From NCBI GenBank assembly GCA_016213135.1, contig JACRBQ010000028.1, positions 71,284 through 135,283 on the forward strand: a DNA stretch of 64,000 nucleotides, written 5' to 3'. This DNA is from Chloroflexota bacterium (GTDB lineage: Bacteria; Chloroflexota; Anaerolineae; Anaerolineales; VGOW01). Positions 7,626-54,178 of this stretch are shown piece by piece (within the stretch, counting starts at the first letter, position 1; each line of letters begins with the position of its first letter). Below the pieces are notes generated by a model that saw only the letters and a program-made list of their open reading frames with translations, searched no databases and was not told where the DNA came from. The position numbers and the translations under genes were made by a program.

Positions 7626-7719
7626 GGGGGGATTGGGGTATGGGGGTAGGGGAGTATGGGGGTTTCGCTGCCGGCGTGAAGCGTGAGGCGTGAATGGGTC
7701 GCGCCTCACGCTTCACATT
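7626..7719. repeat. Heptamer-periodic intergenic element: G-run heptamers followed by a perfect 15-bp hairpin
   Basis: ggggatt ggggtat gggggta ggggagt atggggg (7626-7660). Then GTGAAGCGTGAGGCG (7676-7690) and CGCCTCACGCTTCAC (7702-7716) with an 11-nt loop. Confidence 0.85.
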
Positions 7720-13613: not shown

Positions 13614-14365
13614 GGAGTCATTCTCTCTGCGATTTCTTCCACCGTCATCTGCTTGCCAAATTCGCGCTCCGGCGGGAACGACTGGCCGCGCTCGACCACT
13701 GCCGGTTGCAGCGCCGAGTCGTCGAGGCCCAGGTCGGCGGCAGTCATAATCTCCACTGCTTCCGGGTCGCGATACATTTCAATGATCGCGCCGCCGTGCG
13801 GGTAGCGCGGGGTCGGGCCGCTGCGCGTGACGGTGACCACGGCGGGCAGGTCGGCTTCGACGCCGTTGTAGGCGCGTTGCGTTGCGTCGCGCACGTCTCG
13901 GCGGACGATGCGAACGACCGCGCCTTCCAACGCGCACTGCACCGCGTTACCCAGAAAAGCCATATTCACCATCTCGGCCAACTGTGGCCCCACGGCTTCG
14001 CCCGTGTCCAGCGCGCTGTCGCCGGTGAGGATCAAATCCACATCACCCAGGCTGTCGCACAGAGCTTCGTAGAAACGTCCCGCAGGGGCCGCAACGTCCT
14101 CCTTAATCAAAATCGCCCGATCCGCGCCCAGGGCGCGGGCTTCGCGCAGGGCGTCTTCGGTGCGGGCCGGGCCGACGGCAGCGGCCACCACCTCCGCGCC
14201 CGTGGCGTCTTTGATCTGCAGGGCTGCTTCCAGCGCCCGCTTGTCTGCCGGGTTGATCATGTATTCTTCGCGGTTCACAAACACCTTGCCCGCCTTGCGG
14301 TTCACCAGCATCCCGGCGGGGTCGAGGAGTTGTCTGAGGAGTACGAGGAGTCTCATGGCACGCAT
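13610..14365 (-). CDS. etfB: Electron transfer flavoprotein beta subunit
   Basis: Track ORF 13610..14422 trimmed to MRAMRLLVLLRQLLDP...; 14356 is an alternative start. Family-typical N-terminal strand and overall length. Confidence 0.8.
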   Translation of the reverse strand: MRAMRLLVLLRQLLDPAGMLVNRKAGKVFVNREEYMINPADKRALEAALQIKDATGAEVVAAAVGPARTEDALREARALGADRAILIKEDVAAPAGRFYEALCDSLGDVDLILTGDSALDTGEAVGPQLAEMVNMAFLGNAVQCALEGAVVRIVRRDVRDATQRAYNGVEADLPAVVTVTRSGPTPRYPHGGAIIEMYRDPEAVEIMTAADLGLDDSALQPAVVERGQSFPPEREFGKQMTVEEIAERMTP

Positions 14366-14422
14366 ACCCTTTGTTTCTTCGACAAGGCGACTCGATGGCA
14401 AGGTGATACGGTGATCGCTCAT

Positions 14423-14464
14423 TGAAACACTGTCACCTTGTCACCCGTTCACCGCTTCATGCCT
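14423..14464. repeat. Heptamer/octamer-periodic intergenic element (gtcacc-type) between an acyl-CoA dehydrogenase gene and etfB
   Basis: cattgaaacactgtcaccttgtcacccgttcaccgcttcatgcc. The complement carries five TGA (gtgaag, atgaag, gtgaac, gtgaca, gtgaca). Confidence 0.6.
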
Positions 14465-15631
14465 TCACGGTCTTATTCGCACGCCCACGCCCTGCATCAG
14501 CTCCGAGGCAATCACAATCCGCTGTATCTCGTTGGTGCCTTCGAAGATTTCCGAAATGCGGGCGTCGCGGAAGCCGCGTTCGATGGTGAAATCGCGGCTC
14601 AACCCCAGCGCGCCGTGGATTTGCAACGCGCGGTCGATGCAGCGCGAGGCGGTTTCGGAGCCGAGCAGTTTGCACATGCCCGCCTCTTTGATGAACGGGC
14701 GCCCGTTGTCTATGAGCCACGCGGTGCGATACACCAGCGCCCGCAGGGCCTCGATCTCGGCGGCCATGTCGGCAATCATGAATTGAATGGATTGCATGTG
14801 GGCTATCGGCCGGCCAAACTGCTGGCGCGTGCGCGCCCAACGGATGGACGCCTCCAGCGAGGCTTGCGCCCCGCCGAGCGTGGCCGCGCCCAGCGACGCG
14901 CGGCCAATGTCGAGGGCTTTCATGAACGTCACAAAACCCAATCCTATCTGTCCCACCACATTCTCGCGGGGCACGCGCACCTCGTCGAAATTGAGCAGCG
15001 AGGTGGGCGATCCGTGCAAGCCCATTTTGCTTTCGGGCTTGCCGGGCGTGTACCCGGCCCACTCGCGCTCCACGGCAAACACCGTGGCCCCGCCGCGCGC
15101 GCCCAGCGCCGGGTCGGTGAGGGCCAACACGTTGATCACGTCGGCGATGGGGCCGTTGGTGATCCACATCTTCTGCCCGTCGAGGATATACGAGTCGCCT
15201 TCGAGGGTGGCGCGCATCTGAATTCCGGCGGCGTCAGACCCGGCGTTCGGTTCGGTGAGAGCAAAGGCGGCAATCTTCCTGCCGCTGCACAGGTCGGGCA
15301 TGTATTTTTGCTGGAGGGCCTTGGAGCCGTCGAGGTACAGGCTCATGACGCCAATGCCGATGTGCGCGCCGATGATGGTAGCCACCGACGGGCACACGCG
15401 GTTCAGCTCCTCCATCATGATGCAGTAGCCCAACTCGCCCGCGCCCATGCCTCCGTATTCGCGGGGGAACGGCACGCCGAAGAAGCCCACGTCGCCCATG
15501 CGGCGGATCAACTCGGGCGGAACGACGCTGTCTTCGTCAATTTTTTTGGCGACGGGCGCAATTTCCTCGGTAATGAACTCGCGCAGCATCCGGCGCAGGG
15601 CATTGTATTCGGGGGGGAGGTCGTAGTTCAT
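14465..15631 (-). CDS. Acyl-CoA dehydrogenase
   Basis: 388 aa; ACAD signatures (AFALTEPNAGSDA, QIHGALG, IFEGTNEIQR). Confidence 0.9.
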   Translation of the reverse strand: MNYDLPPEYNALRRMLREFITEEIAPVAKKIDEDSVVPPELIRRMGDVGFFGVPFPREYGGMGAGELGYCIMMEELNRVCPSVATIIGAHIGIGVMSLYLDGSKALQQKYMPDLCSGRKIAAFALTEPNAGSDAAGIQMRATLEGDSYILDGQKMWITNGPIADVINVLALTDPALGARGGATVFAVEREWAGYTPGKPESKMGLHGSPTSLLNFDEVRVPRENVVGQIGLGFVTFMKALDIGRASLGAATLGGAQASLEASIRWARTRQQFGRPIAHMQSIQFMIADMAAEIEALRALVYRTAWLIDNGRPFIKEAGMCKLLGSETASRCIDRALQIHGALGLSRDFTIERGFRDARISEIFEGTNEIQRIVIASELMQGVGVRIRP

Positions 15632-15636
15632 TTTTA

Positions 15637-15702
15637 GTGGTCAATGGTCAGTGACCGGTGGCCAGTGATTTCTGCTCACCGTCCACTGGCCACTATCCAC
15701 TG
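15637..15702. repeat. Heptamer-periodic intergenic element with an internal 10-bp inverted repeat
   Basis: tggtcaa tggtcag tgaccgg tggccag tgatttc tgctcac cgtccac tggccac tatccac. GTGGCCAGTG (15658-15667) pairs with CACTGGCCAC (15684-15693). Confidence 0.8.
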
Positions 15703-16866
15703 TCATGGCTGGATGCGGAGTCCCTTTTCCTCGAACGCCGCCCGCGCGACGACGTATCGCTGAATTTCATCCGTGCCGCCGAGCAGGCGCAGGGCGCGCA
15801 CGTCGCGATAGTAGCGCGAGATGGCGTATTCGTCCGAGAAGCCGTAGCCGCCGTGCACTTGCAGCATTTTATTGGCGGCATCTTTGGCCACGCGCCCGCC
15901 GAAGTACTTGGCCATCGACGCGGCCCGGCCAAATTCCTGACCGCTGCCTGCCAGCCACGCAGCATGGCGCACCAGCCCGCGCAGGGCTTCAATGTCGGTG
16001 GCGGTGTCGGCCACGTAGTTTTGCATGGCCTGCTTGTGGGCAATCTGCACGCCGAACTGTTTGCGCTCGGCGGCGAAGGTCACCCCGAGAGCCAGTGCGG
16101 TTTGGGCCGCGCCCAGGGCCACGGCGGCCAGCGTGAGCCGCACGCGGTCAAAGGCTCGCACTACAATCGCCCAGCCCTCGTTCTCGCCGTTGAGGCGGTT
16201 GGCTTCGGGCACAAAGCAATCTTCAAGATATACGGTGCGAATGTCCATGCCGCGCAGGCCGAGAGTCTTTTCGCGGTAGCCGATCATCACGCCGGGGGCG
16301 TCATTCGCCACCACAAACGCGGAGATGCCCTTGTGCCGCGCTCCGGGGTGGGTGCTGGCGAACACCACCATCACCCCGCCGAGGCCGGCGTTGCTCACCC
16401 AATTCTTCGTGCCGTTCAGCCGGTAGCCGCCCTCAACTTTGTCGGCCCGGGTCGTCAACGAACCGGGGTCGGACCCGGCGTCCGGCTCGGTGAGGGCAAA
16501 CGCCCCAATGACCTCCCCGGCGGCCATGGCCGGCAGATGCTTCTGCTTCTGCTCCTCGGTGCCCACGTCCAAAATCGACATGGCCGCGAGGCTGGTGTGG
16601 ATGGCGATGGTGACGGCGGTGGAGAGGCAGTGCTTGCCCAACTCTTCGGCCAGCAGGGTGTAGCTCAGCCAGTCGATGCCTACGCCGCCGTAAGCCTCGG
16701 GAATGGGTGCGCCGAAGAAGCCCTGCGCCGCCGCCTTTTTGTACAGGTCGAGCGGCGGCTCCTCGCTGCGATCCACGTGCTCGGCGATCTTGGCGACCTC
16801 CTTTTCGGCAAAGTCGCGGAACAAATCGCGAAACATGGTTTGTTCTTCGGTCAGAGAAAAGTCCAT
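15703..16866 (-). CDS. Acyl-CoA dehydrogenase
   Basis: 387 aa; ACAD signatures (AFALTEPDAGSDP, QVHGGYGF, LLGGTDEIQR). Confidence 0.9.
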   Translation of the reverse strand: MDFSLTEEQTMFRDLFRDFAEKEVAKIAEHVDRSEEPPLDLYKKAAAQGFFGAPIPEAYGGVGIDWLSYTLLAEELGKHCLSTAVTIAIHTSLAAMSILDVGTEEQKQKHLPAMAAGEVIGAFALTEPDAGSDPGSLTTRADKVEGGYRLNGTKNWVSNAGLGGVMVVFASTHPGARHKGISAFVVANDAPGVMIGYREKTLGLRGMDIRTVYLEDCFVPEANRLNGENEGWAIVVRAFDRVRLTLAAVALGAAQTALALGVTFAAERKQFGVQIAHKQAMQNYVADTATDIEALRGLVRHAAWLAGSGQEFGRAASMAKYFGGRVAKDAANKMLQVHGGYGFSDEYAISRYYRDVRALRLLGGTDEIQRYVVARAAFEEKGLRIQP

Positions 16867-16940
16867 GAGTGCTCCTGATAGCGATAGCTTGCCGCACTCC
16901 CGGCGGCAAAAAGCTTATCGCGAAATCCGCCGACAGTGCT

Positions 16941-17345
16941 TCACCCCGTATCCTTCTTCTCTTTTTCTTCCTTCAACTTCCCCAACTCTTTCTCTAACTC
17001 TTCTTTCTCTTTCTTCAACTGTTCCACCTCGGCCTGCGCCTCGGCAGCCACCACCGCGGGCTTCTTCGCCTCTTGCCCCCAAACGCTGATGTTGTCGCTC
17101 GTGGGCGAGGGCAGATAACTGCCGTAGACGAACCACCAAACGCCCACGATTATGGCGGCCACGGCCACCGACGCCCCCACCGTGAGCCATTGGCTGAAGA
17201 ACCACGCGTAGATGAACAGAAACAACGCGGCCGGGTACAGCAGAAACCAGTTCGCCACGGCGCGGCGCTTAGGCTCCACCCGCAGCCAAAAGAAGGCGAC
17301 GACGAGGAGCAGGGCAGAGAGGGGGAGGAGGGTGGAGAAGGTCAT
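16941..17345 (-). CDS. Hypothetical membrane protein with a charged coiled-coil C-terminus
   Basis: 134 aa; three hydrophobic helices, then EAQAEVEQLKKEKEELEKELGKLKEEKEKK. I recognise no family. Confidence 0.5.
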   Translation of the reverse strand: MTFSTLLPLSALLLVVAFFWLRVEPKRRAVANWFLLYPAALFLFIYAWFFSQWLTVGASVAVAAIIVGVWWFVYGSYLPSPTSDNISVWGQEAKKPAVVAAEAQAEVEQLKKEKEELEKELGKLKEEKEKKDTG

Positions 17346-17437
17346 GGAGGTGGGAGGTCAGAGGTCAGAGGTGGGAGGTGAGGCCTGGTCACTTTGCCCT
17401 CCACCCTCCACGCTCCACCCTCCACACTTCACATTTG
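17346..17437. repeat. Heptamer-periodic intergenic element with G-rich and C-rich halves (imperfect dyad)
   Basis: ggaggtg ggaggtc agaggtc agaggtg ggaggtg aggcctg gtcactt tgccctc caccctc cacgctc caccctc cacactt cacattt. Confidence 0.8.
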
Positions 17438-18244
17438 TCACTTATCCTTGAACACCGGTTGCCTCTTGCTCAGAAACGCCGTGATGCCTTCCTTGGCGTC
17501 TTCGGTGCCGACCAGCCGGGCCACATTGGCAGCCTCCACCGCCAGCCCGTCGGCCAACGATGCGTCCCGGCCTTTGCCAATGGAGTCCAGCGCCGCGGCA
17601 ATGGTCACTGCCCCCTTGCTGACGATTTTCCTGGCGAGGTCTTTGGCGGTCTTCAGCACTTCGCCCGCCGGCACCACCTTGTTGACCAGGTTGAGCCGGT
17701 AGGCTTCCTGCGCGGTGAAGGTGTCGCCGGTGAGGATCCACTCGGCGGCCTTGGCCGGGCCTACAATGCGCGGCAGCCGTTGTGTGCCGCCCCAGCCGGG
17801 GATGATGCCCAGGCTGATCTCCGGTTGACCCAGCCGCACCCGGTCGCCCGCAATACGCATGTGGCAGGCCATCGCCAGTTCCAGGCCGCCGCCGAGGGCC
17901 ACACCGTTGATGGCGGCGATGAACGGCTTGGGACTGTTTTCAATCTTGGTGAATGTCGATTGCCCGCGCGCGATAAACTCCCGCGCGGCATTGATGGCGG
18001 CGTCGACCGAGCCGAGCTTGATGAAGTCGTTGAACTCGTTGATGTCGGCCCCGGCCACAAAGGCCATTTGCCCGCCGCCGGTGATCACCGCCGCCTTCAC
18101 CGCCGGGTCGGCCAGCACCTCGTCCACCGCTTCGCCTAACTCGATCATTGTGGTGCGGTCCAGCGCGTTCACGGGCGCGTGGTCAATGGTGATGACCGCC
18201 ACGCGATCTTCGATACTGATTTTGATGAATTGTCGCTCTGTCAT
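17438..18244 (-). CDS. Enoyl-CoA hydratase/isomerase (crotonase) family protein
   Basis: Track ORF trimmed to ATG at 18244 (MTERQFIKISIEDRVAVITIDHAPVNAL...). Crotonase motifs (FVAGADI, ALGGGLELAMACH). The longer N-terminus would translate the tandem repeat. Confidence 0.9.
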   Translation of the reverse strand: MTERQFIKISIEDRVAVITIDHAPVNALDRTTMIELGEAVDEVLADPAVKAAVITGGGQMAFVAGADINEFNDFIKLGSVDAAINAAREFIARGQSTFTKIENSPKPFIAAINGVALGGGLELAMACHMRIAGDRVRLGQPEISLGIIPGWGGTQRLPRIVGPAKAAEWILTGDTFTAQEAYRLNLVNKVVPAGEVLKTAKDLARKIVSKGAVTIAAALDSIGKGRDASLADGLAVEAANVARLVGTEDAKEGITAFLSKRQPVFKDK

Positions 18245-18259
18245 GGTTGTTCTCCCGTG

Positions 18260-18375
18260 AGGGCGATTCGCGTATCGCCTTGTAAGGGCGATTCGCGTAT
18301 CGCCTTGTAAGGGCGATTCGCGTATCGCCTTGTAAGGGCGATTCATGAATCGCCCCTACAAGAATCGCCCCTACG
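18260..18375. repeat. 25-bp tandem repeat: 3 perfect copies plus degenerate copies, each unit a small palindrome
   Basis: Unit agggcgattcgcgtatcgccttgta at 18260-18284, 18285-18309 and 18310-18334. Then agggcgattcatgaatcgcccctaca and agaatcgcccctacgattca. Arms GGCGAT/ATCGCC; the 4th unit holds the perfect palindrome GGGCGATTCATGAATCGCCC. Confidence 0.9.
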
Positions 18376-18377
18376 AT

Positions 18378-19607
18378 TCATGCCGAATACTCGTGAAACC
18401 CTTTGCCGGCGGCCCGGCCCAAATGCCCGGCCCGCACTTTGGTGCGCAGCGTGCGCGACGGGCGGAAGCGCTCGCCGTGCTTCTTCTGCAACTCCTCGAG
18501 CTTGGCCACCACTACATCCAGCCCGATGAAGTCGGCCACGGCCAGCGGGCCGATGCGTTCGCCGCCGTAGGTCATGCCGGTGCCGGCCACCATCGCCATG
18601 TCGATGTCGTTCAACGATGCGATGCGCTCTTCAATGCACAGCGAGGCCTCGTTGATCAGCGGCATGATCAGCCGGTCAGGGTCGAAGCCCGGCAGGCCCT
18701 TCCGCACTTTGCCGCCGGCCTGCAAGTCGGCAATCATCTTCTTCGTCGGCTCGTCGGTTTCGTTGCCGTAGCCGTAGAAGCCTGCGCCGCTTTTTTCGCC
18801 CAATCGCCCGGCCTTCACCAGTTCCACAAACAGTTCGGCCCCGTGCATACGCGAGCCGTATTCCTGCTCAAGGTATAGGCCCACGTGCGCGCACACGTCC
18901 AGCCCCAGCATGTCCATCAAAAAGAACGGCCCCATAGGCATGCCCCACTCCTGCATTTTCTGGTCAATTTCGTTGGCCGAGGCCGCCCCCTCTTGCAGGC
19001 TCAGCACGGCCTCGTTGAGGTAGGGCACCAGCAGCCGGTTGACGAGGAAGCCCGGGCACTCTTGCACCACCACTGCAATCTTGCGCAGAGACTCGGTGAA
19101 TTGCACCACGTCGTCCACCGTCTCTTGCGTGGTGTCGAGGCCGGGGATGATCTCCACCAGCTTCATCACGTGCGCCGGATTGAAGAAGTGCATGCCGATC
19201 ATCTTGCCGGGTCGGCCCGAGTAGCGGCCCATCTCCGAGATGGATAGCGCCGAGGTATTCGAGGCGAACAGCGTGGCCTCCGGCACCGCTTTGGCGATCT
19301 CGGTCAGCACGGCTTGCTTGATCTTCATCGTCTCCGGCACGGCTTCGATCACGATGTCCACGTCGCCGAAATCACCATAGGTCAGCGCGGGCGTGACGAG
19401 CGACAGCTTGCCATCCATCTCGCCGGCGGACATCTTGCCCTTGTCCACCCGGCCCTGATAAATTTTGCGGATGCGGGCCATGCCCTTATCCAGCATGGCC
19501 TGATCCACGTCTTTCAGAACAACCGGCAAGCCTGAGAACGAGATGACTTGCGCGATCTCGGCGCCCATGGCCCCCGCGCCGATGACTGCTGCTTTGAAGA
19601 TATACAT
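18378..19607 (-). CDS. 3-hydroxyacyl-CoA dehydrogenase (NAD-binding, long form with duplicated C-terminal domain)
   Basis: Track ORF trimmed to ATG at 19607 (MYIFKAAVIGAGAMGAEIAQV...), preceded by GGAGGG. Rossmann motif GAGAMG and HFFNPA motif. Confidence 0.9.
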   Translation of the reverse strand: MYIFKAAVIGAGAMGAEIAQVISFSGLPVVLKDVDQAMLDKGMARIRKIYQGRVDKGKMSAGEMDGKLSLVTPALTYGDFGDVDIVIEAVPETMKIKQAVLTEIAKAVPEATLFASNTSALSISEMGRYSGRPGKMIGMHFFNPAHVMKLVEIIPGLDTTQETVDDVVQFTESLRKIAVVVQECPGFLVNRLLVPYLNEAVLSLQEGAASANEIDQKMQEWGMPMGPFFLMDMLGLDVCAHVGLYLEQEYGSRMHGAELFVELVKAGRLGEKSGAGFYGYGNETDEPTKKMIADLQAGGKVRKGLPGFDPDRLIMPLINEASLCIEERIASLNDIDMAMVAGTGMTYGGERIGPLAVADFIGLDVVVAKLEELQKKHGERFRPSRTLRTKVRAGHLGRAAGKGFHEYSA

Positions 19608-19620
19608 GATCCCTCCAAAC

Positions 19621-19686
19621 GACAAATGACGAATGACGAATGATGAATGGGACCGCCATTCCGCATTCATCGTTCCGCATTCCGCG
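19621..19686. repeat. Heptamer-periodic intergenic element (gacgaat type) with a complementary right half
   Basis: gacaaat gacgaat gacgaat gatgaat gggaccg ccattcc gcattca tcgttcc gcattcc. TGA recurs at 7-nt spacing. Confidence 0.8.
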
Positions 19687-20901
19687 TTAGAAATGCTCGA
19701 TCACCAACGCCGCGCCCTGGCCGCCGGCGGCGCACAGCGTGGCCAACCCGTAGCGGGCCGGCTTGCCTTCCCTGGCCCGGCGCTTCATTTCGTGCAGCAT
19801 GGTGACCACGATGCGCACGCCCGAGGATCCCACGGGGTGCCCCAGGGCAATCGCCCCGCCGTTCACGTTCACCTTGCTCCAGTCCCAGCCTTCATCTTTC
19901 AGCGCCTTGCCCACCGACAGCACTTGCGCGGCGAAGGCTTCGTTGACTTCGATAAGGTCCATATCCTTCAGCGCCAGCCCCGATTTCTTGAGGGCCTTGG
20001 GCACGGCAAACGCCGGGGCCACGCCCATGCGGTGCGGCTCCACACCGGCGAAGCCGTAGCCGACGATTCTCGCCATCGGCGTGTAGCCAAGCGCCTGTGC
20101 CTTCTCGGCGGTCATCATCAGCATGGCGCTGGCGCCGTCTGAGATGCCGCACGAGTTGGCCGGAGTGACACTGCCGCCTTCTTTGAATATGGTCGGATAG
20201 AGCGCGGCTTTTTGCAGCGTCAGCCCGGGGTTGATGGTCTCATCCTGCGTCACTTTCTCCCGCGCCACTTCGCTGCCGGCCACCTTCTTCACCACTTCCA
20301 CCGGCACGATCTCGTCGGCGAACTTCTGCATCCGGGTAGCCATGAACGCCTTCTTGTGCGACTGCACGGCGTACTCGTCTTGCTCCTGCCGGCTGATGCC
20401 GAACTCTTCGACGAGATTCTCGGCCGTGCGGCCCATGAGCTGCCCGCAAATGGGATCGGTCAGGCCTTCCCACATGGCATCGGTGAACTGCGAATGGCGA
20501 ATCTTGAGTCCCCAGCGCGCGCCTTTCACAATGTACGGGATGTTGCTCATGCTTTCCACGCCGCCCACGAGGTAAATCTCCCCGTCGCCCACCTGGATGC
20601 TGCGCCACGCGTTGACGATGGCGTCCATGCCCGAGTCGCAATTGCGGGCTACGGTGTAGGCCGGAACTTCCTTGGGGATGCCCGCCATCAGCGCGGCCAC
20701 GCGGGTGATGTTGGGCGCGTCGGACGGCTGGGCGATGCAGCCAAAGATGACCTCGGCGATGCTGGCCGAATCGATCTTCGTGCGCTCCAACAATGCTTTG
20801 ATCACCGTGACGGCCAGCGCCTTGGCGTCCACGTCGCGGAACGCGCCGCCGTGGTTGCCCACGGGCGTGCGCACGGCATCTACGATTACGACATCTTTCA
20901 T
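19687..20901 (-). CDS. Acetyl-CoA C-acetyltransferase / 3-ketoacyl-CoA thiolase
   Basis: 404 aa; thiolase signatures (VARNCDSGMDAI active-site Cys region, NVNGGAIALGHPVGSSG, GLATLCAAGGQG). Confidence 0.92.
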   Translation of the reverse strand: MKDVVIVDAVRTPVGNHGGAFRDVDAKALAVTVIKALLERTKIDSASIAEVIFGCIAQPSDAPNITRVAALMAGIPKEVPAYTVARNCDSGMDAIVNAWRSIQVGDGEIYLVGGVESMSNIPYIVKGARWGLKIRHSQFTDAMWEGLTDPICGQLMGRTAENLVEEFGISRQEQDEYAVQSHKKAFMATRMQKFADEIVPVEVVKKVAGSEVAREKVTQDETINPGLTLQKAALYPTIFKEGGSVTPANSCGISDGASAMLMMTAEKAQALGYTPMARIVGYGFAGVEPHRMGVAPAFAVPKALKKSGLALKDMDLIEVNEAFAAQVLSVGKALKDEGWDWSKVNVNGGAIALGHPVGSSGVRIVVTMLHEMKRRAREGKPARYGLATLCAAGGQGAALVIEHF

Positions 20902-20923
20902 TGCGGCTCTCCTTCTGAAAGAA

Positions 20924-20982
20924 CATCAAATTCCAAACTTCAAACCCCAAATTCGGAGTTTGATATTTGAAATTTTAAATTG
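20924..20982. repeat. AT-rich heptamer-periodic dyad element between the TetR and thiolase genes
   Basis: catcaaa ttccaaa cttcaaa ccccaaa ttcggag tttgata tttgaaa ttttaaa. The right half roughly complements the left. It lies in the likely promoter/operator region. Confidence 0.7.
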
Positions 20983-21657
20983 TTATTGCGTTTTCAATCC
21001 CTTGAGCACCAACTCCATCACTCCGTTGTAAAGCGTTTGCACCTCCAGCGCCACCAGCTCGCGCCTGAGCGGGTGTGAGATGAGCACCAGCGCGCCGTTG
21101 AGCGCCGCCCAGTACATGCCCGCCGCTTGTCTGGCATCGGTCACGGCAAAATCGCCGTCATCCATGCCTTGTTGGATGGCCCGCACTGCCCAGTGCAACC
21201 CTTGCACCGACCGCAACAGGATTTGCTGATACAGCTCCGCCGACACGGACTCCTGAAACTGGCCGCGGTCAAAGGCCATGATGAGCCGATAGTAGTCGTG
21301 GGTGTTTTGGAAGAAGTCGAGGTAAGTGGCGGAGATGCGGCGTAGCCGGGTTTCGGCGGGCAGGGGGGTGGCTTCGGCATAGGCTTCGGATAATCGCTGC
21401 ACCAGCACATCCAGGCCTTCCAAAAGCAAATGAGCCAGGATTGTTTCCTTGCTCTCGAAATACAGATAGAAGGTGCCCTTGGCTACCTGGGCGCGGGCGG
21501 CCACGTCGTCAACCGTGGCGCGATGGATGCCATTGTGGAAAAACACTTCACGGGCGGCGGCCAGGATGGCGTCACGGCGGACAATGGTTTCGCGTTCGCG
21601 CCGTGCTCGGGCCGGCGTCGTCTTCCGCTTGGGTGGGGCTTTCTGACTGGCGGTCAT
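20983..21657 (-). CDS. TetR/AcrR-family transcriptional regulator (likely regulator of the downstream beta-oxidation operon)
   Basis: Trimmed to ATG at 21657 (MTASQKAPPKRKTT...). TetR HTH region (ILAAAREVFFHNGIHRATVDDVAARAQVAKGTFYLYF). Confidence 0.85.
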   Translation of the reverse strand: MTASQKAPPKRKTTPARARRERETIVRRDAILAAAREVFFHNGIHRATVDDVAARAQVAKGTFYLYFESKETILAHLLLEGLDVLVQRLSEAYAEATPLPAETRLRRISATYLDFFQNTHDYYRLIMAFDRGQFQESVSAELYQQILLRSVQGLHWAVRAIQQGMDDGDFAVTDARQAAGMYWAALNGALVLISHPLRRELVALEVQTLYNGVMELVLKGLKTQ

Positions 21658-21729
21658 ATTGTGACTAACAGTCAGTTTATTGCAATTTTCGGTCCGAGTC
21701 AATAACTGAGCCTTAAAATCTCGGCCAGA

Positions 21730-38964: not shown

Positions 38965-40137
38965 ATGCCAGCCTTTGCCCAGTCCGCCGCCCAGGTATTG
39001 CTCTCTGCACTTCGCCACGGCCAAACCGCCAATGCGTGGGAAGCCGAGCGCTCGCAATCTGGCGTGGAATGGGAAGACCTCGCCATCCGGGCCATTGTGT
39101 TCGGGTTGGCTCCTCAGTTGCACCATCGGCTGCAAAGGTGGGGGGCCGCCGTGCCGCCCCGCGCCGCGGCCAAGCTGGCAGCCACCTATCAGGCCACCGC
39201 ATACCGCAACGCCGCCATCTATGAGCAACTGGGGCAACTGCTCGTCGCCTGCGACGAACACGGCGCGCATCCCATCGCCCTCAAAGGCGCGCACCTTGCC
39301 GCTGCCGTGTACGCGCACCCGGCACTGCGCCCCATGAGCGACATTGACCTGCTGTTTGCGCCGGGCGAGCTGCCCGCCGCCGAGGCCGCCCTGCGCTCGC
39401 TGGGTTACGAGGGCAAGCATAAGCCCGCCCAAATCGGCGCCGGCGTCACCAAACACACGAGCACGTTTCAGCGCCCCGCGCCCACTGAGGCCACGCCCAA
39501 CCCTTACCTCTCGGCACAGGCCAACGTCATGGTCGAGCCGCACGGCTCGCTCGAAGAATCGTGGTACGGCCTGCGGGTGGACATCACCCCCGGTATGAGT
39601 GACCGGGCCGCGCAAGCCTGGCTCGGCGGCTGCGGCTGCCGCGTGCTAACGCCCGAGGATTTGCTGTTGCACCTGTGCGTCCATTTTTGTTTTCATTTGA
39701 TCATGGGCGCGCCTTCGATGGTGCAATTGACGGACCTCCTTACGGTGGTGGACACATGCTCTCCCGATTGGGCTGTGTTCACTTCCCGCGTGCTGGATCG
39801 CCGCGCCGCACCCTACGCGTTGGCAGCTTTGACTCTGGCTTCCGGCCTGCTGGGTGCGCCCGCGCCACAGTCCACGCTGGCCGCCCTCTCGGCTGCCGCG
39901 CCGGGGCCGTTGCGCGCGCGCATCGCCCGCCTCGGCCTCGCCGATGTTCTGCGGCGCACGCAACAAAAACCGTTCAACAATCTTGCGGGCCGCATTTGGC
40001 ATGGCCTGGCCGACCGCGCCGAGACTGCGCGCTGGGCCGCCGACTGGCCAAGCCGCTGGCGCGTGTGGCAAACGGCGTTGAATGTGGGAAGCACTGATAC
40101 AGGACGGATGCTATTGAAAATGAACAATGAACAATGA
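38965..40137 (+). CDS. Uncharacterised nucleotidyltransferase family protein (NTP_transf_5-like), copy 1
   Basis: 390 aa; paralogous in layout to 57135..58316 (e.g. ALKGAHLAAAVYAHPALRPMSDIDLLF vs VLKGWPVVERLYANPAQRVMYDHDFLL; LHLCVHFCFH vs IHLAMHFAGH). The stop lies inside a heptamer repeat. Confidence 0.7.
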   Translation: MPAFAQSAAQVLLSALRHGQTANAWEAERSQSGVEWEDLAIRAIVFGLAPQLHHRLQRWGAAVPPRAAAKLAATYQATAYRNAAIYEQLGQLLVACDEHGAHPIALKGAHLAAAVYAHPALRPMSDIDLLFAPGELPAAEAALRSLGYEGKHKPAQIGAGVTKHTSTFQRPAPTEATPNPYLSAQANVMVEPHGSLEESWYGLRVDITPGMSDRAAQAWLGGCGCRVLTPEDLLLHLCVHFCFHLIMGAPSMVQLTDLLTVVDTCSPDWAVFTSRVLDRRAAPYALAALTLASGLLGAPAPQSTLAALSAAAPGPLRARIARLGLADVLRRTQQKPFNNLAGRIWHGLADRAETARWAADWPSRWRVWQTALNVGSTDTGRMLLKMNNEQ

Positions 40138-40200
40138 ACAATGAACAATGGCGATACTTCTGACCTCTGACCTCCGACCTCTGTCCTCCGCCTTCCGAAT
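40117..40200. repeat. Heptamer tandem repeats (aatgaac x4, then tgacctc-type x5)
   Basis: aaaatga acaatga acaatga acaatga acaatgg cgatact tctgacc tctgacc tccgacc tctgtcc tccgcct tccgaat. TGA at 40121/40128/40135/40142 and ATG at 40120/40127/40134/40141/40148. Confidence 0.9.
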
Positions 40201-42028: not shown

Positions 42029-42103
42029 AGCGGGAGTCAGGAGTCAGGAGTCAGAGGTCAACATTGAGTCTTGAGCCTTGAGCCTTGTGAATTGTGCATT
42101 GTG
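42029..42103. repeat. Heptamer-periodic element carrying phased stop and start codons
   Basis: gagtcag gagtcag gagtcag aggtcaa cattgag tcttgag ccttgag ccttgtg aattgtg cattgtg. Plus-strand tca at 42037/44/51/58; TGA at 42065/72/79; GTG at 42087/94/101. Confidence 0.9.
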
Positions 42104-42931
42104 CCTTCTCCTCTTTCCTCCTCCTTCGCCCACATCCCCTCCGGCCCGTTCATCTACGGCCCGGAAGAGTGTTACGAGCGGCTTGAGCAGTGCCCGCCGC
42201 TCAAGCCGAGGCAAACGCTGGAACTGCCGGAGTTTTGGATAGCCAAGGCCCCGGTGACGTATGGGCAGTGGCGGGAGTTTTTGGAGGCGACGGGCCACCG
42301 ATGGGCCGGGCAGTGGTATCGAGTCGTTCGTGGCTGGCGAGGGGTTTTCTTGCGCGCCTATGCGCCCACACCCACTTATCCCGCTGGGCACGACGACGTC
42401 CCCATCGTTGATGTGTCGCAGCGGGACGCATATGCCTATTGCGAATGGCTGTCGGGGCGGTTGGGCTGGCGGTGCACACTCCCCACCGAGGCCCAGTGGG
42501 AAAAGGCGGCCCGGGGCACGGATGGGCGGGTCTATCCATGGGGCGACGAGTCACCCCGGCCCGAAATCCAGTGGCAGCGCAAGTTCCCCGTGGGGCCGGA
42601 GTCGTACCTGTTCAGCCTCGCCGTCCGCCCCCGGCGCGAGTGGGCGCGGGCGGGGTGGTATTGGCGTAACGGTCACCCGTGGCCGGTGGGCGCCGCGCCG
42701 CAAAACGTGTCGCCCTACGGCTGCATGGATATGAGCGGCAACATTTGGGAATGGACGAGCAGCCTTTACAACCCGGCCCTGCCGCAGTTTCACGCGGTGA
42801 AGGGCGGGTCGTGGGGGTACAGCATTCACCACACGAAGTTGAATGTTCGCAGCGCGTGTAGTGTAACGACTCCCAGCGCCGAATACCGGGCGCAGGGCAC
42901 GGGGTTTCGGATGATGGTTGAAATGGTCTAA
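42101..42931 (+). CDS. Formylglycine-generating-enzyme (SUMF1/FGE-sulfatase) domain protein
   Basis: Frame of track ORF 42071..42931; probable start at the third phased GTG (42101, VPSPLSSSFAHIPSGPFIYG...). FGE-type motifs (PVVDVS-like PIVDVSQRDAYAYCEWL, RLPTEAEWE-like CTLPTEAQWEKAARG, NIWEWT, KGGSW, GFR). Confidence 0.8.
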   Translation: MPSPLSSSFAHIPSGPFIYGPEECYERLEQCPPLKPRQTLELPEFWIAKAPVTYGQWREFLEATGHRWAGQWYRVVRGWRGVFLRAYAPTPTYPAGHDDVPIVDVSQRDAYAYCEWLSGRLGWRCTLPTEAQWEKAARGTDGRVYPWGDESPRPEIQWQRKFPVGPESYLFSLAVRPRREWARAGWYWRNGHPWPVGAAPQNVSPYGCMDMSGNIWEWTSSLYNPALPQFHAVKGGSWGYSIHHTKLNVRSACSVTTPSAEYRAQGTGFRMMVEMV

Positions 42932-44294: not shown

Positions 44295-44418
44295 GTGGAC
44301 CATGTGATGCGTGCATCTGCCGCCAAATAGTCGTTACACGCGTTACGTCTTCCGATATCGTCCGATTTCACTGTGACGTAGAGTAAATGAGAGGCGGTGG
44401 CACAACTCGCTAACTGAA

Positions 44419-44652
44419 GTGATAAAATTCCTCAATCGAGTAATTCGGGGATGGCGGAACTACTTTCGTAGTGGAAACTGCACCTTGAAATTCCAGCAAC
44501 TTGACCGCTATGTACGCAACCGACTGGAACAATGGGTTCGGTCTAAACAGGGGTCTCGTGGGCATTGGAACGAACGTGCCTTTCGGGATTTGATGGCTCA
44601 ACACGGATTGGAATACTTCTACCTGCCCGGAGTATGTGCGGTTAAGCCTTGA
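44419..44652 (+). pseudogene. Group II intron reverse transcriptase/maturase, C-terminal fragment only (~77 codons)
   Basis: IKFLNRVIRGWRNYFRSGNCTLKFQQLDRYVRNRLEQWVRSK...; the RT finger/palm domains are absent. Confidence 0.7.
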
Positions 44653-44677
44653 AAGCCACAGGAAGAAGGTTGTCAGA

Positions 44678-44710
44678 GAGCCGGATGAGGGAAAACCTCA
44701 TGTCCGGTTC
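44678..44710 (+). ncRNA. Group II intron domain V
   Basis: GAGCCGGAUGAGG-GAAA-ACCUCAUGUCCGGUUC: AGC catalytic triad, 2-nt bulge, GAAA tetraloop; close to the domain V consensus. Confidence 0.75.
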
Positions 44711-44887
44711 GAGGTGGCAGGGGATGAAAACCAGACATGGTGATGGTATTGAGGCACTCTCAGAAGAAATGGAGAGCAACGGGTCTGCCACACCTAAATT
44801 CAGGCGTCATCCCTTGACCCTACCAGCCGATGGGCGGAGGTTGCCGCTATGAACACAGGCTTTTTCTGAATGAAAGGAGAACCCAAA

Positions 44888-52906: not shown

Positions 52907-52969
52907 CCATTTCGCCTCCCACCTCTCACCTCCCACTTCCCACTTCCCACTTCCCACCTCTCCTCCCCC
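52907..52969. repeat. Heptamer-periodic intergenic element (tcccact type)
   Basis: tcccacc tctcacc tcccact tcccact tcccact tcccacc tctcctc, between the AsnB-type and EEP genes. Confidence 0.85.
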
Positions 52970-53749
52970 ATGCGCCTCCTCACTTACAACCTCTACTTCG
53001 GCGGCGCCGACCGGGCCGAGCAAATTCTTGCGGTGCTGACTCACGCCAACGCCGACGTGATTGCCCTCACCGAGGCGGACGACCGGGCCGTGGTGGAGAT
53101 GCTCGCTGCGCGGTTGGGCATGGTTCACCAGTGGGCGCGAGGCAGCGGCGATCGACACATTGCCACCCTCTCCCGCTTCCCCATCGTGGATTGGCATATC
53201 TACAACAGGCCGCCCCTCAGCCAAGCCGCGCTGGAAACAACGCTGGAAATCCGGCCGTCGCCGATCGGGTCGGAGGTTGGAGGGGTGGGGGTCACAATTT
53301 ATAACGTGCATCTTCTCCCTTACCTCTTCCTCCCGTTCGAGCTGCGCCGCTGGCAAGCCGTAGGCTGTCTGCTGCAAATCATCCGCCAGCAGCCATCGGG
53401 GCCGCACCTGCTCGTGGGCGACTTCAACGCCATTGCCCCCGGCGACCGTGTGCTGCAACACCTCCACCCGCCGCGCATGAGGCGGCAGCAGGCGCTGCAA
53501 TTCAACATCATCTTCCGGTTGGCCCTTCGCCGCCTCCTCAGCGCCGGGTACACCGATTGCTTCCGTGCCCTGCACCCCGCCGACGACGGCTTTACGTGGA
53601 TGCCCCCCAGGCCGAGCACCCGCTACGACTACATCCTCGCCGACCCCACCCTGGCCCGCGCCCTCACCGCCTGCCGGGTCGTCGACGACCTGCCAGCCAT
53701 CGCCACCGCCTCCGACCACTTGCCGCTGATGGCTGACTTTGAGTTTTGA
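52970..53749 (+). CDS. Endonuclease/exonuclease/phosphatase (EEP) family protein
   Basis: 259 aa; MRLLTYNLYFGG...ALTE...GDFN...SDHLPL pattern of the EEP fold. Confidence 0.8.
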   Translation: MRLLTYNLYFGGADRAEQILAVLTHANADVIALTEADDRAVVEMLAARLGMVHQWARGSGDRHIATLSRFPIVDWHIYNRPPLSQAALETTLEIRPSPIGSEVGGVGVTIYNVHLLPYLFLPFELRRWQAVGCLLQIIRQQPSGPHLLVGDFNAIAPGDRVLQHLHPPRMRRQQALQFNIIFRLALRRLLSAGYTDCFRALHPADDGFTWMPPRPSTRYDYILADPTLARALTACRVVDDLPAIATASDHLPLMADFEF

Positions 53750-53759
53750 ATGTTGAGTG

Positions 53760-53773
53760 TTGAGTTTTGAATT
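53760..53773. repeat. Left 14-bp terminal inverted repeat of the four-helix-bundle cassette
   Basis: TTGAGTTTTGAATT is the exact reverse complement of 54152-54165. Part of heptamer array 53741-53775 (gagtttt gaatgtt gagtgtt gagtttt gaattc). Confidence 0.85.
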
Positions 53774-53793
53774 CTCACGAAGGAGTCTTGCCT

Positions 53794-54153
53794 GTGAGCG
53801 AAAGCATTGTTCAGAAGAAGAGTTTTGAGTTTTCGTTGGAAATTATTGCGCTTTATCGAGTGCTTCAGGGAAAGCGCGAATATGTAATTTCCAAACAGTT
53901 GCTGCGCAGCGGCACAAGCATTGGGGCCAATGTGGAGGAGGCATCGGCGGGGCAGAGCAAAAAGGATTTTCTCTCAAAGATGTCGGTAGCTTCCAAAGAA
54001 GCCAGAGAAACGAAATACTGGCTGCGCCTGCTTCAAGAGTCGAAAATCGTTGATATGGATGTCGCCACTGAGCTTTCTCACGTCGAGGAGCTGATCCGTA
54101 TCCTCACTGCCATAGTCAAAACCACCGGCGCCCAACTTCGCCCCAATTCATAA
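53794..54153 (+). CDS. Four-helix-bundle protein (23S rRNA intervening-sequence protein family)
   Basis: Probable GTG start at 53794, after GAAGGAG (VSESIVQKKSFEFSLEIIALYRVL...SKQLLRSGTSIGANVEEA...KDFLSKMSVASKEARETKYWLRLL). GC content is clearly lower than the flanking genes. Confidence 0.8.
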   Translation: MSESIVQKKSFEFSLEIIALYRVLQGKREYVISKQLLRSGTSIGANVEEASAGQSKKDFLSKMSVASKEARETKYWLRLLQESKIVDMDVATELSHVEELIRILTAIVKTTGAQLRPNS

Positions 54154-54165
54154 TTCAAAACTCAA
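54152..54165. repeat. Right 14-bp terminal inverted repeat of the four-helix-bundle cassette
   Basis: AATTCAAAACTCAA; part of heptamer array 54147-54177 (aattcaa aactcaa aactcaa aacttca). Confidence 0.85.
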
Positions 54166-54178
54166 AACTCAAAACTTC

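Follow-up and report, generated by a model that had tools for sequence, protein, structure and literature searches.

The window analysed here is a stretch of 64,000 nucleotides from a metagenome-assembled genome of the Anaerolineales (Chloroflexota). On its minus strand, Pfam matches identify a fatty-acid beta-oxidation operon with seven intercistronic spacers. Five of these contain short-period tandem arrays arranged as dyads, with a period of 7 nt in four cases and of 8 nt in one; the remaining two hold a 25-nt tandem array (18245-18377) and a plain hairpin (16867-16940). A previous sequence-only reading had assigned a heptamer element to every gap of the operon, which is correct for four of the seven spacers but not for the period-8 spacer or for the two non-heptameric ones. 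Its description of the elements as degenerate heptamer arrays like the STRR sequences of cyanobacteria was confirmed, the units being tandem, intergenic and degenerate (72-90% matches).

The spacer between the genes for a TetR-family regulator and a thiolase (20902-20982, minus strand, like all operon spacers) reads in mRNA sense AAATTTC AAATATC AAACTCC ... GGGGTTT GAAGTTT GGAATTT, followed by a GGAG Shine-Dalgarno sequence. Among the operon dyads, this one alone begins with the C/A-rich arm, and its predicted folding energy is -27.1 kcal/mol (z -4.1). Between the thiolase and 3-hydroxyacyl-CoA dehydrogenase genes (19611-19686), four GACGAAT and four CATTCCG units, as read on the plus strand, are followed by GGAGG and ATG (predicted fold -31.2 kcal/mol, z -2.7). 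The dehydrogenase/hydratase spacer (18245-18377) contains 3.4 copies of the 25-nt unit AGGGCGATTCGCGTATCGCCTTGTA and a related palindrome, with a folding z of -10.2. In the spacer between the enoyl-CoA hydratase gene and a small membrane ORF (17346-17437), five GGAGGTG units pair with five CCCTCCA units, and the 3' arm adjoins the ATG without a Shine-Dalgarno sequence; the predicted fold has -42 kcal/mol with a weaker z (-1.6). The next spacer, between the membrane ORF and acyl-CoA dehydrogenase 1 (16867-16940), is the imperfect hairpin without a short period. The two acyl-CoA dehydrogenase genes are separated by a dyad of four TGGTCAR and four CCACTNN units (15632-15702), also without a Shine-Dalgarno sequence (predicted fold -37 kcal/mol, z -5.9), in which the previously quoted pair GTGGCCAGTG at 15658 and CACTGGCCAC at 15684 is exact.

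The spacer between acyl-CoA dehydrogenase 2 and ETF-beta had earlier been placed at 14423-14464. There is indeed an array at that position, but it is the 5' arm alone of a period-8 dyad, GCGGTGAA CGGGTGAC AAGGTGAC ... GATCACCG TATCACCT. Since homologue alignments of ETF-beta start at residue 22-23, and the gene call in a 99.7%-identical contig is 248 aa, the gene starts at 14356, not at 14422, and the first operon spacer is therefore 14357-14464. In the predicted fold of this dyad (-32.9 kcal/mol, z -1.3), 5-bp helices alternate with 3x3 internal loops.

The loops of the operon dyads measure 4-20 nt, and the hairpins span each gap exactly, from the stop codon to the Shine-Dalgarno sequence or start codon. 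With predicted energies of -27 to -42 kcal/mol, the long imperfect hairpins that had been proposed for the polycistronic RNA are borne out at the level of folding prediction. The sense and antisense folding energies of the spacers are mixed and thus do not demonstrate an RNA-level constraint. Intrinsic terminators were ruled out, as no terminator-like site (a GC-rich stem with a U-tract) is present on the minus strand inside any operon spacer. At the gathering threshold, Rfam gave no match at the arrays and no rRNA in the window; its sole match there, at 44676-44823, is to part of a group II intron.

For the TetR/thiolase spacer only, one may consider that the palindrome overlaps an internal promoter and serves as the operator to which the neighbouring TetR-family repressor binds. 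The palindrome is situated immediately between the regulator gene and the genes that this regulator probably controls, is AT-rich in a genome of 63% GC, and has an arm order opposite to that of the other dyads. However, no promoter-like sites were found in the operon gaps on the operon strand, and no motif is common to the orthologous spacers of the relatives L001, L002 and L003, whose regulators are 57-73% identical; in L001, this spacer carries a 9-mer dyad of different sequence. We give the operator explanation a very slim chance.

Short periods were sought throughout the window as tracts in which 18 or more of 21 positions were self-matches at a given lag. Nine such tracts were found at lag 7 and four at lag 14, and none at any other lag between 2 and 15. 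Compared with shuffles, the z-scores of the pooled short non-coding segments were 6.5 for lag 7 and 4.0 for lag 14, and the coding DNA of the window showed period 3 only. Of the short periods, only 7 is strong in the window, where it is restricted to non-coding DNA. The comparison with shuffled and coding controls, which the sequence-only reading had itself named as one that could refute it, came out in its favour.

The arrays are not tied to the beta-oxidation operon. At least five further sites lie elsewhere in the window. An intercistronic spacer on the minus strand (7626-7719) holds a dyad of three GCGTGAR and three to four YTCACNN units beside a G-rich ~8-nt array. The other sites are on the plus strand. 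At 40113-40197, five ATGAACA units and four to five TCTGACC units form two adjoining, non-complementary arrays just upstream of a start codon; at 42030-42107, three arrays (GGAGTCA x4, CTTGAGC x3 and ATTGTGC x3) adjoin each other between two plus-strand genes; and at 52915-52962, seven CCTCCCA/CTTCCCA units lie directly upstream of the ATG at 52970. These three sites are direct, not dyadic. The fifth site, 53738/54144, is described below. No two array sites within the 64 kb align; each has its own unit. Dispersed repeats of the REP/BIME or MITE type, which would have a common consensus, were ruled out on this basis.

The arrays could also be multivalent single-stranded RNA sites for a protein of the OB-fold, S1, Csp or CsrA type, which would bind one protein per unit and control downstream translation. 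Such a model was proposed for the TAACTGA repeats of Beggiatoaceae, and CspB binds heptamer units (PMC4679880). The arrays at 17346, 15632 and 52915 abut start codons without Shine-Dalgarno sequences, in favour of this model. However, a single sequence-specific protein would not fit, given that each site has a unit sequence of its own. In addition, most arrays are paired into dyads, which would hide the single strand, and periods of 7, 8 and 9 coexist. Hence, this explanation appears highly unlikely.

The site at 53738/54144 contains a gene between its two arms. The 5' arm (53738-53773, plus strand; TTGAGTT/TTGAATG x5) extends into the end of the upstream gene, whose TGA stop codon it provides. 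It is followed by a gene (53767-54153, plus strand) for a four-helix-bundle protein of the 23S rRNA intervening-sequence family (PF05635, TIGR02436; E 2.9e-24 with Pfam and 8.7e-29 in a second search), which matches PDB 2RLD (E 1e-25) and whose family is related to DGR Avd. The 3' arm (54144-54179, plus strand; AATTCAA/AACTCAA x5) is complementary to the 5' arm: the duplex has a predicted energy of -35.9 kcal/mol vs. -16.7 +/- 3.6 kcal/mol with shuffled partners, and the 471-nt minimum-free-energy structure is closed by the arms.

This arrangement recurs widely. Of 80 metagenome loci encoding relatives of the 53767-54153 gene, 73 were testable, and 60 of these have period-7 tracts within 200 nt of the PF05635 gene. 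Within 150 nt of the gene, 100 such tracts were counted (3.7 per kb) vs. 0.15 per kb elsewhere, an enrichment of ~24-fold, and periods 6, 8 and 9 yielded 0-1 tracts there. All six plasmid loci examined, from two Nostoc strains, Anabaena, Chlorohelix, Bernardetia and Treponema, have an array-flanked PF05635 gene. Such genes are also found in the spacers of the same beta-oxidation operon in other Anaerolineae, i.e., L005, L006 and L020, the latter with two copies. Decayed copies occur as well: the copy in an operon spacer of L007 is frameshifted and its arms are shortened, and one in L005 is truncated to 92 aa. In L001, an ORF-less octamer dyad (GGTAGA-type units) occupies the place where L020, L005, L170 and L189 carry an octamer cassette.

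The period depends on the cassette family and may be 7, 8 or 9, so the 7-nt period is not conserved as had been claimed. A different PF05635 subfamily, of 151 aa, has octamer arms, GGTAGATT ... TACCAATC, in four of four sampled clusters and at two different operon sites, and the cassette of L077 has nonamer arms, which indicates that the arms travel with the PF05635 gene. Which operon spacers the cassette families occupy varies from genome to genome, and the elements may be mobile. It had been argued that the diversity of units speaks against a single transposing element; the sites are indeed not copies of one sequence, but the argument was too strong, as the arms belong to PF05635 cassette families found in varied spacers. 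The order of the arms is biased, in the same direction for solo dyads and for cassettes. G exceeds C in the 5' arm of 35 of 47 dyads at operon loci, a mixed set of mostly solo dyads with a few cassette arms, and in 60 of 70 at IVP loci, which are mostly cassettes. Where solo arrays lie near PF05635 genes, they have the same unit as the cassette in 9 of 20 cases vs. ~30% expected, i.e., only slightly above chance.

Units and occupancy turn over fast between related genomes. When orthologous gaps were compared, as the sequence-only reading had suggested, arrays were found in the same operon spacers of relatives, with other units and sometimes with period 8 (L008 and L009 carry TAACTGA-type units), but L004, L010 and L011 have no element anywhere in the operon, which therefore does not need them. 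These observations bear on the possibility that the arrays arise neutrally when replication slips in non-coding DNA, without function and without relation to PF05635. Besides the turnover and the relatives without arrays, a difference of two octamer units between L170 and L171 is in line with slippage, and heptameric repeats are over-represented in many bacterial genomes, for which the polymerase footprint was proposed as the cause (Mrazek 2007, as cited in PMC4692102). However, a polymerase footprint would not make the period follow the PF05635 subfamily, nor produce periods of 7 and 8 in one genome, as in L005. The complementarity and equal length of the arms, the ~3:1 bias in their order and the enrichment beside PF05635 genes also argue against slippage. 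Furthermore, unit number is unchanged in the dyad spacers of the window (three of period 7 and one of period 8) among the strains L081, L082 and L169 (99.3-99.9% identity), while the 25-nt array at 18245-18377 has three copies here vs. one in L081. We consider slippage unlikely. Together with the degeneracy of the units, the stable unit number among close strains also rules out contingency-type simple sequence repeats.

Alternatively, the hairpins could be operon-specific regulators, i.e., they would set the relative expression of the cistrons, either as REP/BIME-like stabilisers or by insulating translation, and would resemble PF05635 arms by convergence. The exact fit of the hairpins to the gaps, the significant folding z-scores in three spacers and the occupation of the same spacers in several relatives would agree with such a role. 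Moreover, three of the four substitutions that distinguish the 20902-20982 dyad from that of a 99.25%-identical strain are at stem positions (the fourth is in the loop), raising the predicted stability in L081. On the other hand, the same type of element is present in unrelated spacers across the window, one spacer has three different occupants in three relatives with flanking genes that are 91-93% identical, and operon spacers are near zero in length in some other relatives. The periodicity is left unexplained, since any stable hairpin would serve. Thus, convergent regulators seem quite unlikely.

As similar repeat arms flank the PF05635 gene in many bacteria, the operon dyads are probably gene-less copies of intervening sequences (IVSs). 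We regard it as somewhat better than an even chance that they are ORF-less members of an IVS-like class of elements, the stem most likely being cut by RNase III or acting as a structured determinant of processing or stability. The full-length form is a small cassette that consists of a tandem array of 7-nt (or 8- or 9-nt) units, a PF05635 four-helix-bundle gene and a complementary array, usually with the G-rich arm first. Such cassettes are found in spacers that are transcribed, for the most part in the same orientation as the host operon, and their paired arms close a long stem. The operon elements would have retained no more than the two arms and a short loop between them and, on transcription, would each form an imperfect hairpin of 21-30 bp that fills the spacer between stop codon and ribosome-binding site. 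Judging from the homologous cassette of 23S rRNA, RNase III would then be expected to cut the stem, unless the latter acts as a structured element. If the stems are cut, the polycistronic mRNA would be split into segments with their own ends. Among the roles suggested in the sequence-only reading, that of a processing site is the best supported, by analogy with the rRNA IVS of Coxiella (PMC4990558).

Complementary ends that close a long stem and tandem heptamers at the element ends are shared by the cassette and the operon dyads, but the PF05635 ORF is present in the cassette and absent from the five operon dyads. As their loops are only 4-20 nt, the latter could only be ORF-less derivatives, and no ORF remnant is visible in these loops. 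Two further observations speak against the IVS-like explanation: the units of the solo dyads in the window are unlike those of its single PF05635 cassette, and the TetR/thiolase dyad, which has cassette-like units, has the opposite arm order. The direct arrays elsewhere in the window, the mixed sense and antisense folding energies and the relatives that lack the elements also count against it. As for RNase III, the periodic internal loops of the stems could block the enzyme.

Several known repeats resemble these elements. Mazel et al. reportedly described in 1990 that the STRR sequences of cyanobacteria are degenerate tandem heptamers in intergenic DNA, including the spacers of co-transcribed genes. 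The arrays described here are likewise tandem, degenerate, dispersed and intergenic, and the PF05635 genes of Nostoc and Anabaena are flanked by such arrays, but the host is a member of the Anaerolineales and not a heterocystous cyanobacterium, and both phylum and units differ. To our knowledge, GGAGGTG, GACGAAT, TGGTCAR and the other units found here are not canonical STRR units. Calothrix heptanucleotides are cited in PMC4692102, and the literature searched does not mention STRR dyads or a link to a four-helix-bundle gene.

The TAACTGA repeats of Beggiatoaceae, Cyanobacteria and Bacteroidetes are intergenic as well and often end just upstream of a start codon without a Shine-Dalgarno sequence (PMC4679880); they are patchily distributed, in taxa that largely coincide with those matched in the plasmid search for PF05635. 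However, that study reported one unit per genome and almost only direct repeats, whereas here many unit families form mostly dyads. The GGGAATC/GGGGATT repeats of Xanthomonas and Nostoc are also intergenic heptamer arrays, with some inverted pairs and one array inside the pec operon, but they have a single G-rich unit and were studied because they form G-quadruplexes, and no gene association was reported (PMC4692102). No description for Anaerolineae was found in the literature searched, which supports the earlier impression of novelty for this kind of genome, but heptamer-derived (GATAGRA)n satellites are scattered through the genome of Chloroflexus aurantiacus, another member of the Chloroflexota (PMC6749651). 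These represent one family of units in transposed satellites, for which dyads, operon context and a PF05635 link were not reported.

The elements described here have an internal short period and no shared consensus, in contrast to REP/BIME elements. The latter are imperfect palindromes in intercistronic and 3' regions of enterobacteria that can stabilise upstream mRNA segments, and REPs share one consensus throughout the genome and depend on RAYT transposases for their movement.

ORF-less IVSs are known, e.g., in Salmonella. Unlike the 23S rRNA IVSs, which are located in helix 25 or 45, all elements described here lie between protein-coding genes, within mRNA operons; their arms are longer, as arrays of 4-15 units, their periods include 8 and 9, and cleavage by RNase III is putative. 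In Coxiella burnetii, the IVS contains an S23p ORF, tandem GACAGAT heptamers and a terminal stem of 28 bp, in which RNase III cuts on the 5' side, at the start of the first repeat (PMC4990558). The likeness to the IVSs of C. burnetii and Leptospira extends to the PF05635 ORF inside the element, the long stem formed by its complementary ends, the heptamers at the element end, where the copy number of GACAGAT differs between strains, and the decay of the ORF while the RNA structure is kept (PMC4990558).

The region under study is a minus-strand operon, the gene identities of which were assigned with Pfam. In the order of transcription, it encodes a TetR-family regulator (20983-21702), a thiolase (19687-20901), a 3-hydroxyacyl-CoA dehydrogenase (18378-19610), an enoyl-CoA hydratase (17438-18244), a 134-aa membrane ORF (16941-17345), two acyl-CoA dehydrogenases (15703-16866, then 14465-15631), and ETF beta and ETF alpha. 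Four of its spacers, i.e., 20902-20982, 19611-19686, 17346-17437, and 15632-15702, contain degenerate heptamer arrays with mutually complementary left and right halves, thus forming dyads of two short-period arms around a short loop. The sequence-only reading had located these heptamer dyads exactly. Its claim that every gap is heptameric holds at its core, for these four, but not for the remaining three. The spacer in front of the ETF-beta gene (14357-14464) contains a period-8 dyad, in which 5-bp helices alternate with 3x3 internal loops. Spacer 16867-16940 is a plain hairpin, and 18245-18377 combines a 25-nt tandem array (AGGGCGATTCGCGTATCGCCTTGTA, x3.4) with a palindrome (GGGCGATTCATGAATCGCCC) in a predicted fold of -76 kcal/mol (z -10). 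The 25-nt array is a repeat family distinct from the heptamers and has three copies in the window vs. one in the close strain L081 (99.25% identity).

The earlier bounds of the ETF-beta spacer (14423-14464) were wrong. The longest ETF-beta ORF runs 22 codons into the spacer (14356-14422), but homologues align only from residue 22-23 of this ORF, and the gene called on a 99.7%-identical contig encodes 248 aa. The true start is therefore the ATG at 14356, and the spacer comprises 14357-14464. A naive ORF list likewise extends the hydratase (start 18244) and the dehydrogenase (start 19610) too far, through repeat DNA. In the membrane ORF and the second acyl-CoA dehydrogenase, the start codon (17343-17345 and 15629-15631, respectively) immediately follows the 3' arm of a dyad, and there is no Shine-Dalgarno sequence; these two genes also lack one in the related operon loci L001 and L002.

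When the whole window was scanned for tracts with at least 18 of 21 self-matches at lags 2-15, nine were found at lag 7 and four at lag 14, the other lags giving none; all period tracts of the window were intergenic. When short non-coding segments were pooled, their identity at lag 7 was 0.318 vs. 0.269 +/- 0.008 after shuffling (z 6.5), with a z of 4.0 at lag 14, whereas coding DNA showed a period-3 signal only. Thus, period 7 is indeed stronger in intergenic DNA than in shuffled and coding controls. Outside the operon, further arrays were found at 7626-7719, 40113-40197, 42030-42107, and 52915-52962, and at 53738-53773, which is paired with 54144-54179. Several arrays of the window are direct only and not dyadic. 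At 44400-44823, the window contains a group II intron fragment: its 3' end (Rfam RF00029 at 44676-44823) follows what seems to be the C-terminal portion of a maturase ORF, the 5' part is seemingly missing, and no link to the arrays was evident.

As mRNA, the operon spacers are predicted to fold into long imperfect hairpins. Predicted energies were -37.0 kcal/mol for 15632-15702 (z -5.9), -27.1 for 20902-20982 (z -4.1), -31.2 for 19611-19686 (z -2.7), -42.0 for 17346-17437 (z -1.6), and -32.9 for 14357-14464 (z -1.3). A comparison of sense and antisense folding, as a measure of selection at the RNA level, gave mixed results: folding favored the sense strand in 13 of 22 spacers, and approximately five strongly favored the antisense strand. 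A scan of the operon strand revealed no terminator-like or promoter-like sites in the gaps, and no Rfam family matched within the spacers at the gathering threshold.

At the species level, the closest relatives are Anaerolineales and Anaerolineae MAGs, in many of which the operon is syntenic; an identical hydratase is encoded on GCA_016189805.1. L001, L002, L003, and L008 contain periodic dyads in the same spacers, with wholly different units. Octamers (e.g., GGTAGACA/TGTCTACC) are present in L001, L020, and L021, heptamers in L002 and L008, and both in L005. No periodic arrays were found in most of the non-Anaerolineae operon loci, and few or none in L003 (in part), L004, L010, and L011 from Anaerolineae; hence, the operon can do without them. 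The hairpins have also been considered as operon-specific regulatory structures, a possibility that ranks lower, since their genome-wide occurrence and rapid replacement do not fit. Ranking lower as well is the explanation that the arrays are binding sites for a single-strand binding protein (PMC4679880), which fits neither the diversity of the units nor their pairing. In L001, L002, L003, L008, and L009, an extra gene of ~1 kb, by its motifs resembling a ribose-phosphate pyrophosphokinase gene, lies between those for the thiolase and the dehydrogenase (7524-8671 in L001); the window lacks this gene and has only a GACGAAT dyad in this spacer (19611-19686). N runs, i.e., scaffold gaps, lie inside octamer arrays of L001 (10809-10907) and L021 (10799-10842), showing that the repeats break short-read assemblies.

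Among three strains of 99.3-99.9% identity, the number of units in the dyad spacers of the window (three of period 7, one of period 8) is unchanged. The TetR/thiolase hairpin differs from that of L081 by four substitutions in 81 nt, against a background of 0.75%; three are at stem positions and one is in the loop, and the hairpin is predicted to be more stable in L081, at -37.9 kcal/mol as against -28.7. Reading this spacer as a TetR operator was ranked low.

The paired arrays at 53738-53773 (TTGAGTT-type) and 54144-54179 (AACTCAA-type) lie 370 nt apart and enclose a gene for a 128-aa protein of the PF05635/TIGR02436 family. PF05635 is the 23S rRNA intervening-sequence (IVS) protein family of four-helix bundles, which is related to the DGR protein Avd; the closest structure is 2RLD. 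The predicted energy of the duplex between the arms is -35.9 kcal/mol vs. -16.7 +/- 3.6 for shuffled partners, and the predicted minimum-energy fold of this 471-nt cassette closes through its arms. The upstream gene (52970-53749) runs into the 5' array, the first units of which (53738-53749) cover its last codons and provide its TGA stop codon; in several relatives, arrays likewise start at or inside a stop codon. An exact-protein look-up for this upstream gene returned no record.

This arrangement recurs in other genomes. Among 80 metagenome loci encoding relatives of the PF05635 protein (GC 32% to 62%), 73 were testable, and period-7 tracts were present at 200 nt or less from the gene in 60 of these; any other period from 5 to 10 was found in one only. 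The density of period-7 tracts was 3.7 per kb within 150 nt of the gene (100 tracts) vs. 0.15 per kb elsewhere (24 tracts), a 24-fold enrichment, with zero, one, and zero tracts near the gene at periods 6, 8, and 9, respectively. Flank-to-flank duplex energies ranged from -31 to -163 kcal/mol, and polarity was kept, with T/G-rich units (TTTTGAG, TTTTGAA, TGTTGAA) upstream and their complement downstream. In some cassettes, the gene is directly preceded by a solo dyad and followed by a second copy of the pyrimidine-rich arm, i.e., an A - A' - gene - A' layout (L167, 1300-1500 and 1851-1960; L099, 1386-1911).

In a plasmid collection, relatives were found mainly in Nostoc and other cyanobacteria, and also in Bernardetia and Chondrinema (Bacteroidota), Chlorohelix (Chloroflexota), and Treponema. 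The array-gene-array layout was present in all six plasmid loci examined, with flanking units AGTAAAA in Nostoc TCL26-01 and Anabaena cylindrica, GTCGGAG in Nostoc punctiforme, ATGAAGG in Chlorohelix, TAGTGAT (x15) in Bernardetia, and GAAAGNG in Treponema. On the plasmids of Nostoc sp. TCL26-01 (L163, 1489-1845) and A. cylindrica (L164, 1489-1836), cas2 and cas1 flank the gene with its AGTAAAA arrays, which lies on the opposite strand. Possibly, this location explains the result of a large screen, in which the protein was scored as linked to CRISPR arrays (PMC10910872).

Cassettes also reside within the operon spacers of sister genomes. A tblastn search of the operon loci with the PF05635 protein of the window gave no match because the subfamilies are too distant, and a local profile (HMM) search was needed to detect the genes. 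In L020 and L005, a PF05635 gene with octamer arms occupies the dehydrogenase/hydratase spacer; L020 contains a second copy downstream of the second acyl-CoA dehydrogenase gene, and L005 a truncated copy of 92 aa with heptamer arms. L006 has a copy with heptamer arms (GCAGGTC/CTGCGAC) in the hydratase/acyl-CoA dehydrogenase spacer, where L007 has a frameshifted copy with shortened arms, and a gene with nonamer arms (GGCGGGCAG/GCCCGCCCT) is present in L077 (Gemmatimonadota). The hydratase genes of L005, L006, and L007 are 91-93% identical, and their dehydrogenase/hydratase spacers contain an octamer cassette, a plain hairpin, and a heptamer solo dyad, respectively. The PF05635 family is large, with at least 2019 relatives for the L020 protein and its subfamily alone, and octamer arms of the GGTAGATT/GGGAAACT ... 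TACCAATC type were found in all four sampled clusters of these, at two sites (dehydrogenase/hydratase and ornithine-carbamoyltransferase/amino-acid-kinase) and co-oriented with the host genes. Thus, gene and arms travel together, and the period is characteristic of the cassette family, not of the genome. L170 and L171 encode an identical protein with arms that differ by two octamer units. L001 contains an ORF-less octamer dyad with GGTAGA-type units exactly in the spacer where L020, L005, L170, and L189 have a cassette.

A precedent is offered by the 23S rRNA IVS of Coxiella burnetii, which contains an ORF of the same family, S23p, and, at its 5' end, two to three tandem GACAGAT heptamers in strain-variable copy number (PMC4990558). 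An RNase III cut was mapped in its 28-bp terminal stem, on the 5' side at the start of the first repeat, and the ORF decays while the RNA structure persists (PMC4990558). By analogy with these findings, we interpret the operon dyads as IVS-like elements without an ORF, the 21-30 bp stems of which would, in the polycistronic mRNA, be RNase III substrates or at least structured determinants of processing or stability. Since a dyad shows the same arm first on either strand, arm order is intrinsic and independent of the direction of transcription. The 5' arm was richer in G than in C in 35 of 47 dyads of the operon loci, a recount in which some mis-assigned arms remain, and in 60 of 70 elements, mostly cassettes, at the IVS-protein loci, a first automated count that is noisy and contains duplicates. 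As a possible reason for this bias, it may be speculated that a C-rich arm, if it emerged first, would offer Rho a loading site ahead of transcription of the second arm.

The main rival explanation is that the arrays merely result from replication slippage, which is supported by the general excess of heptamers cited in PMC4692102. However, slippage does not account for the bias in arm order, the matching of complementary arms, the enrichment adjoining PF05635 genes, or the periods, which track the protein subfamily inside one genome. Some observations speak against reading the dyads as IVS-like elements: several arrays are direct only, the solo dyads of the window have units unlike those of its one cassette, and in the sole dyad with similar units, the arms are in the reverse order. 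Near cassettes, 9 of 20 solo arrays share the cassette unit, which is marginally above the ~30% expected by chance.

In practice, the elements break assemblies, as at the N run in the L001 array, shift start-codon calls, as for ETF-beta in the window, and may account for the CRISPR-array-linked score of a PF05635 protein. Linking the arrays with the PF05635 family provides a testable framework: the arrays would be arms that pair to close an IVS-like cassette, the candidate enzyme for its processing would be RNase III, and the array period would go with the protein subfamily. A literature search of incomplete coverage, with key early papers outside it, revealed no report of such elements in Anaerolineae, of the dyadic form in operon spacers, or of short-period arrays being generally linked to PF05635 genes. 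To our knowledge, neither an origin nor a function has been established for the short tandem arrays of heptamers catalogued over decades in bacterial intergenic DNA, and we know of no role assigned to the 23S rRNA IVS protein family outside diversity-generating retroelements.

The short tandemly repeated repetitive (STRR) heptamers of cyanobacteria have been known since 1990. Heptamer arrays are already on record for cyanobacteria and Xanthomonas (PMC4692102), for Beggiatoaceae and Bacteroidetes (PMC4679880), and for one Chloroflexus genome (PMC6749651), and heptamers inside one IVS were mentioned for Coxiella (PMC4990558). A rather unlikely possibility is that one widespread, unrecognized class of mobile cassettes around Avd-like PF05635 proteins underlies the STRR heptamers, the TAACTGA-type repeats of Beggiatoaceae and Bacteroidetes, the heptamer satellites of Chloroflexota, and the ORF-bearing 23S rRNA IVSs alike. 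Each protein subfamily would then set the period (7, 8, or 9 nt) and the unit of its own arrays by binding, templating, or maintaining them, and the cassette would spread into transcribed spacers, leaving gene-less dyads behind.
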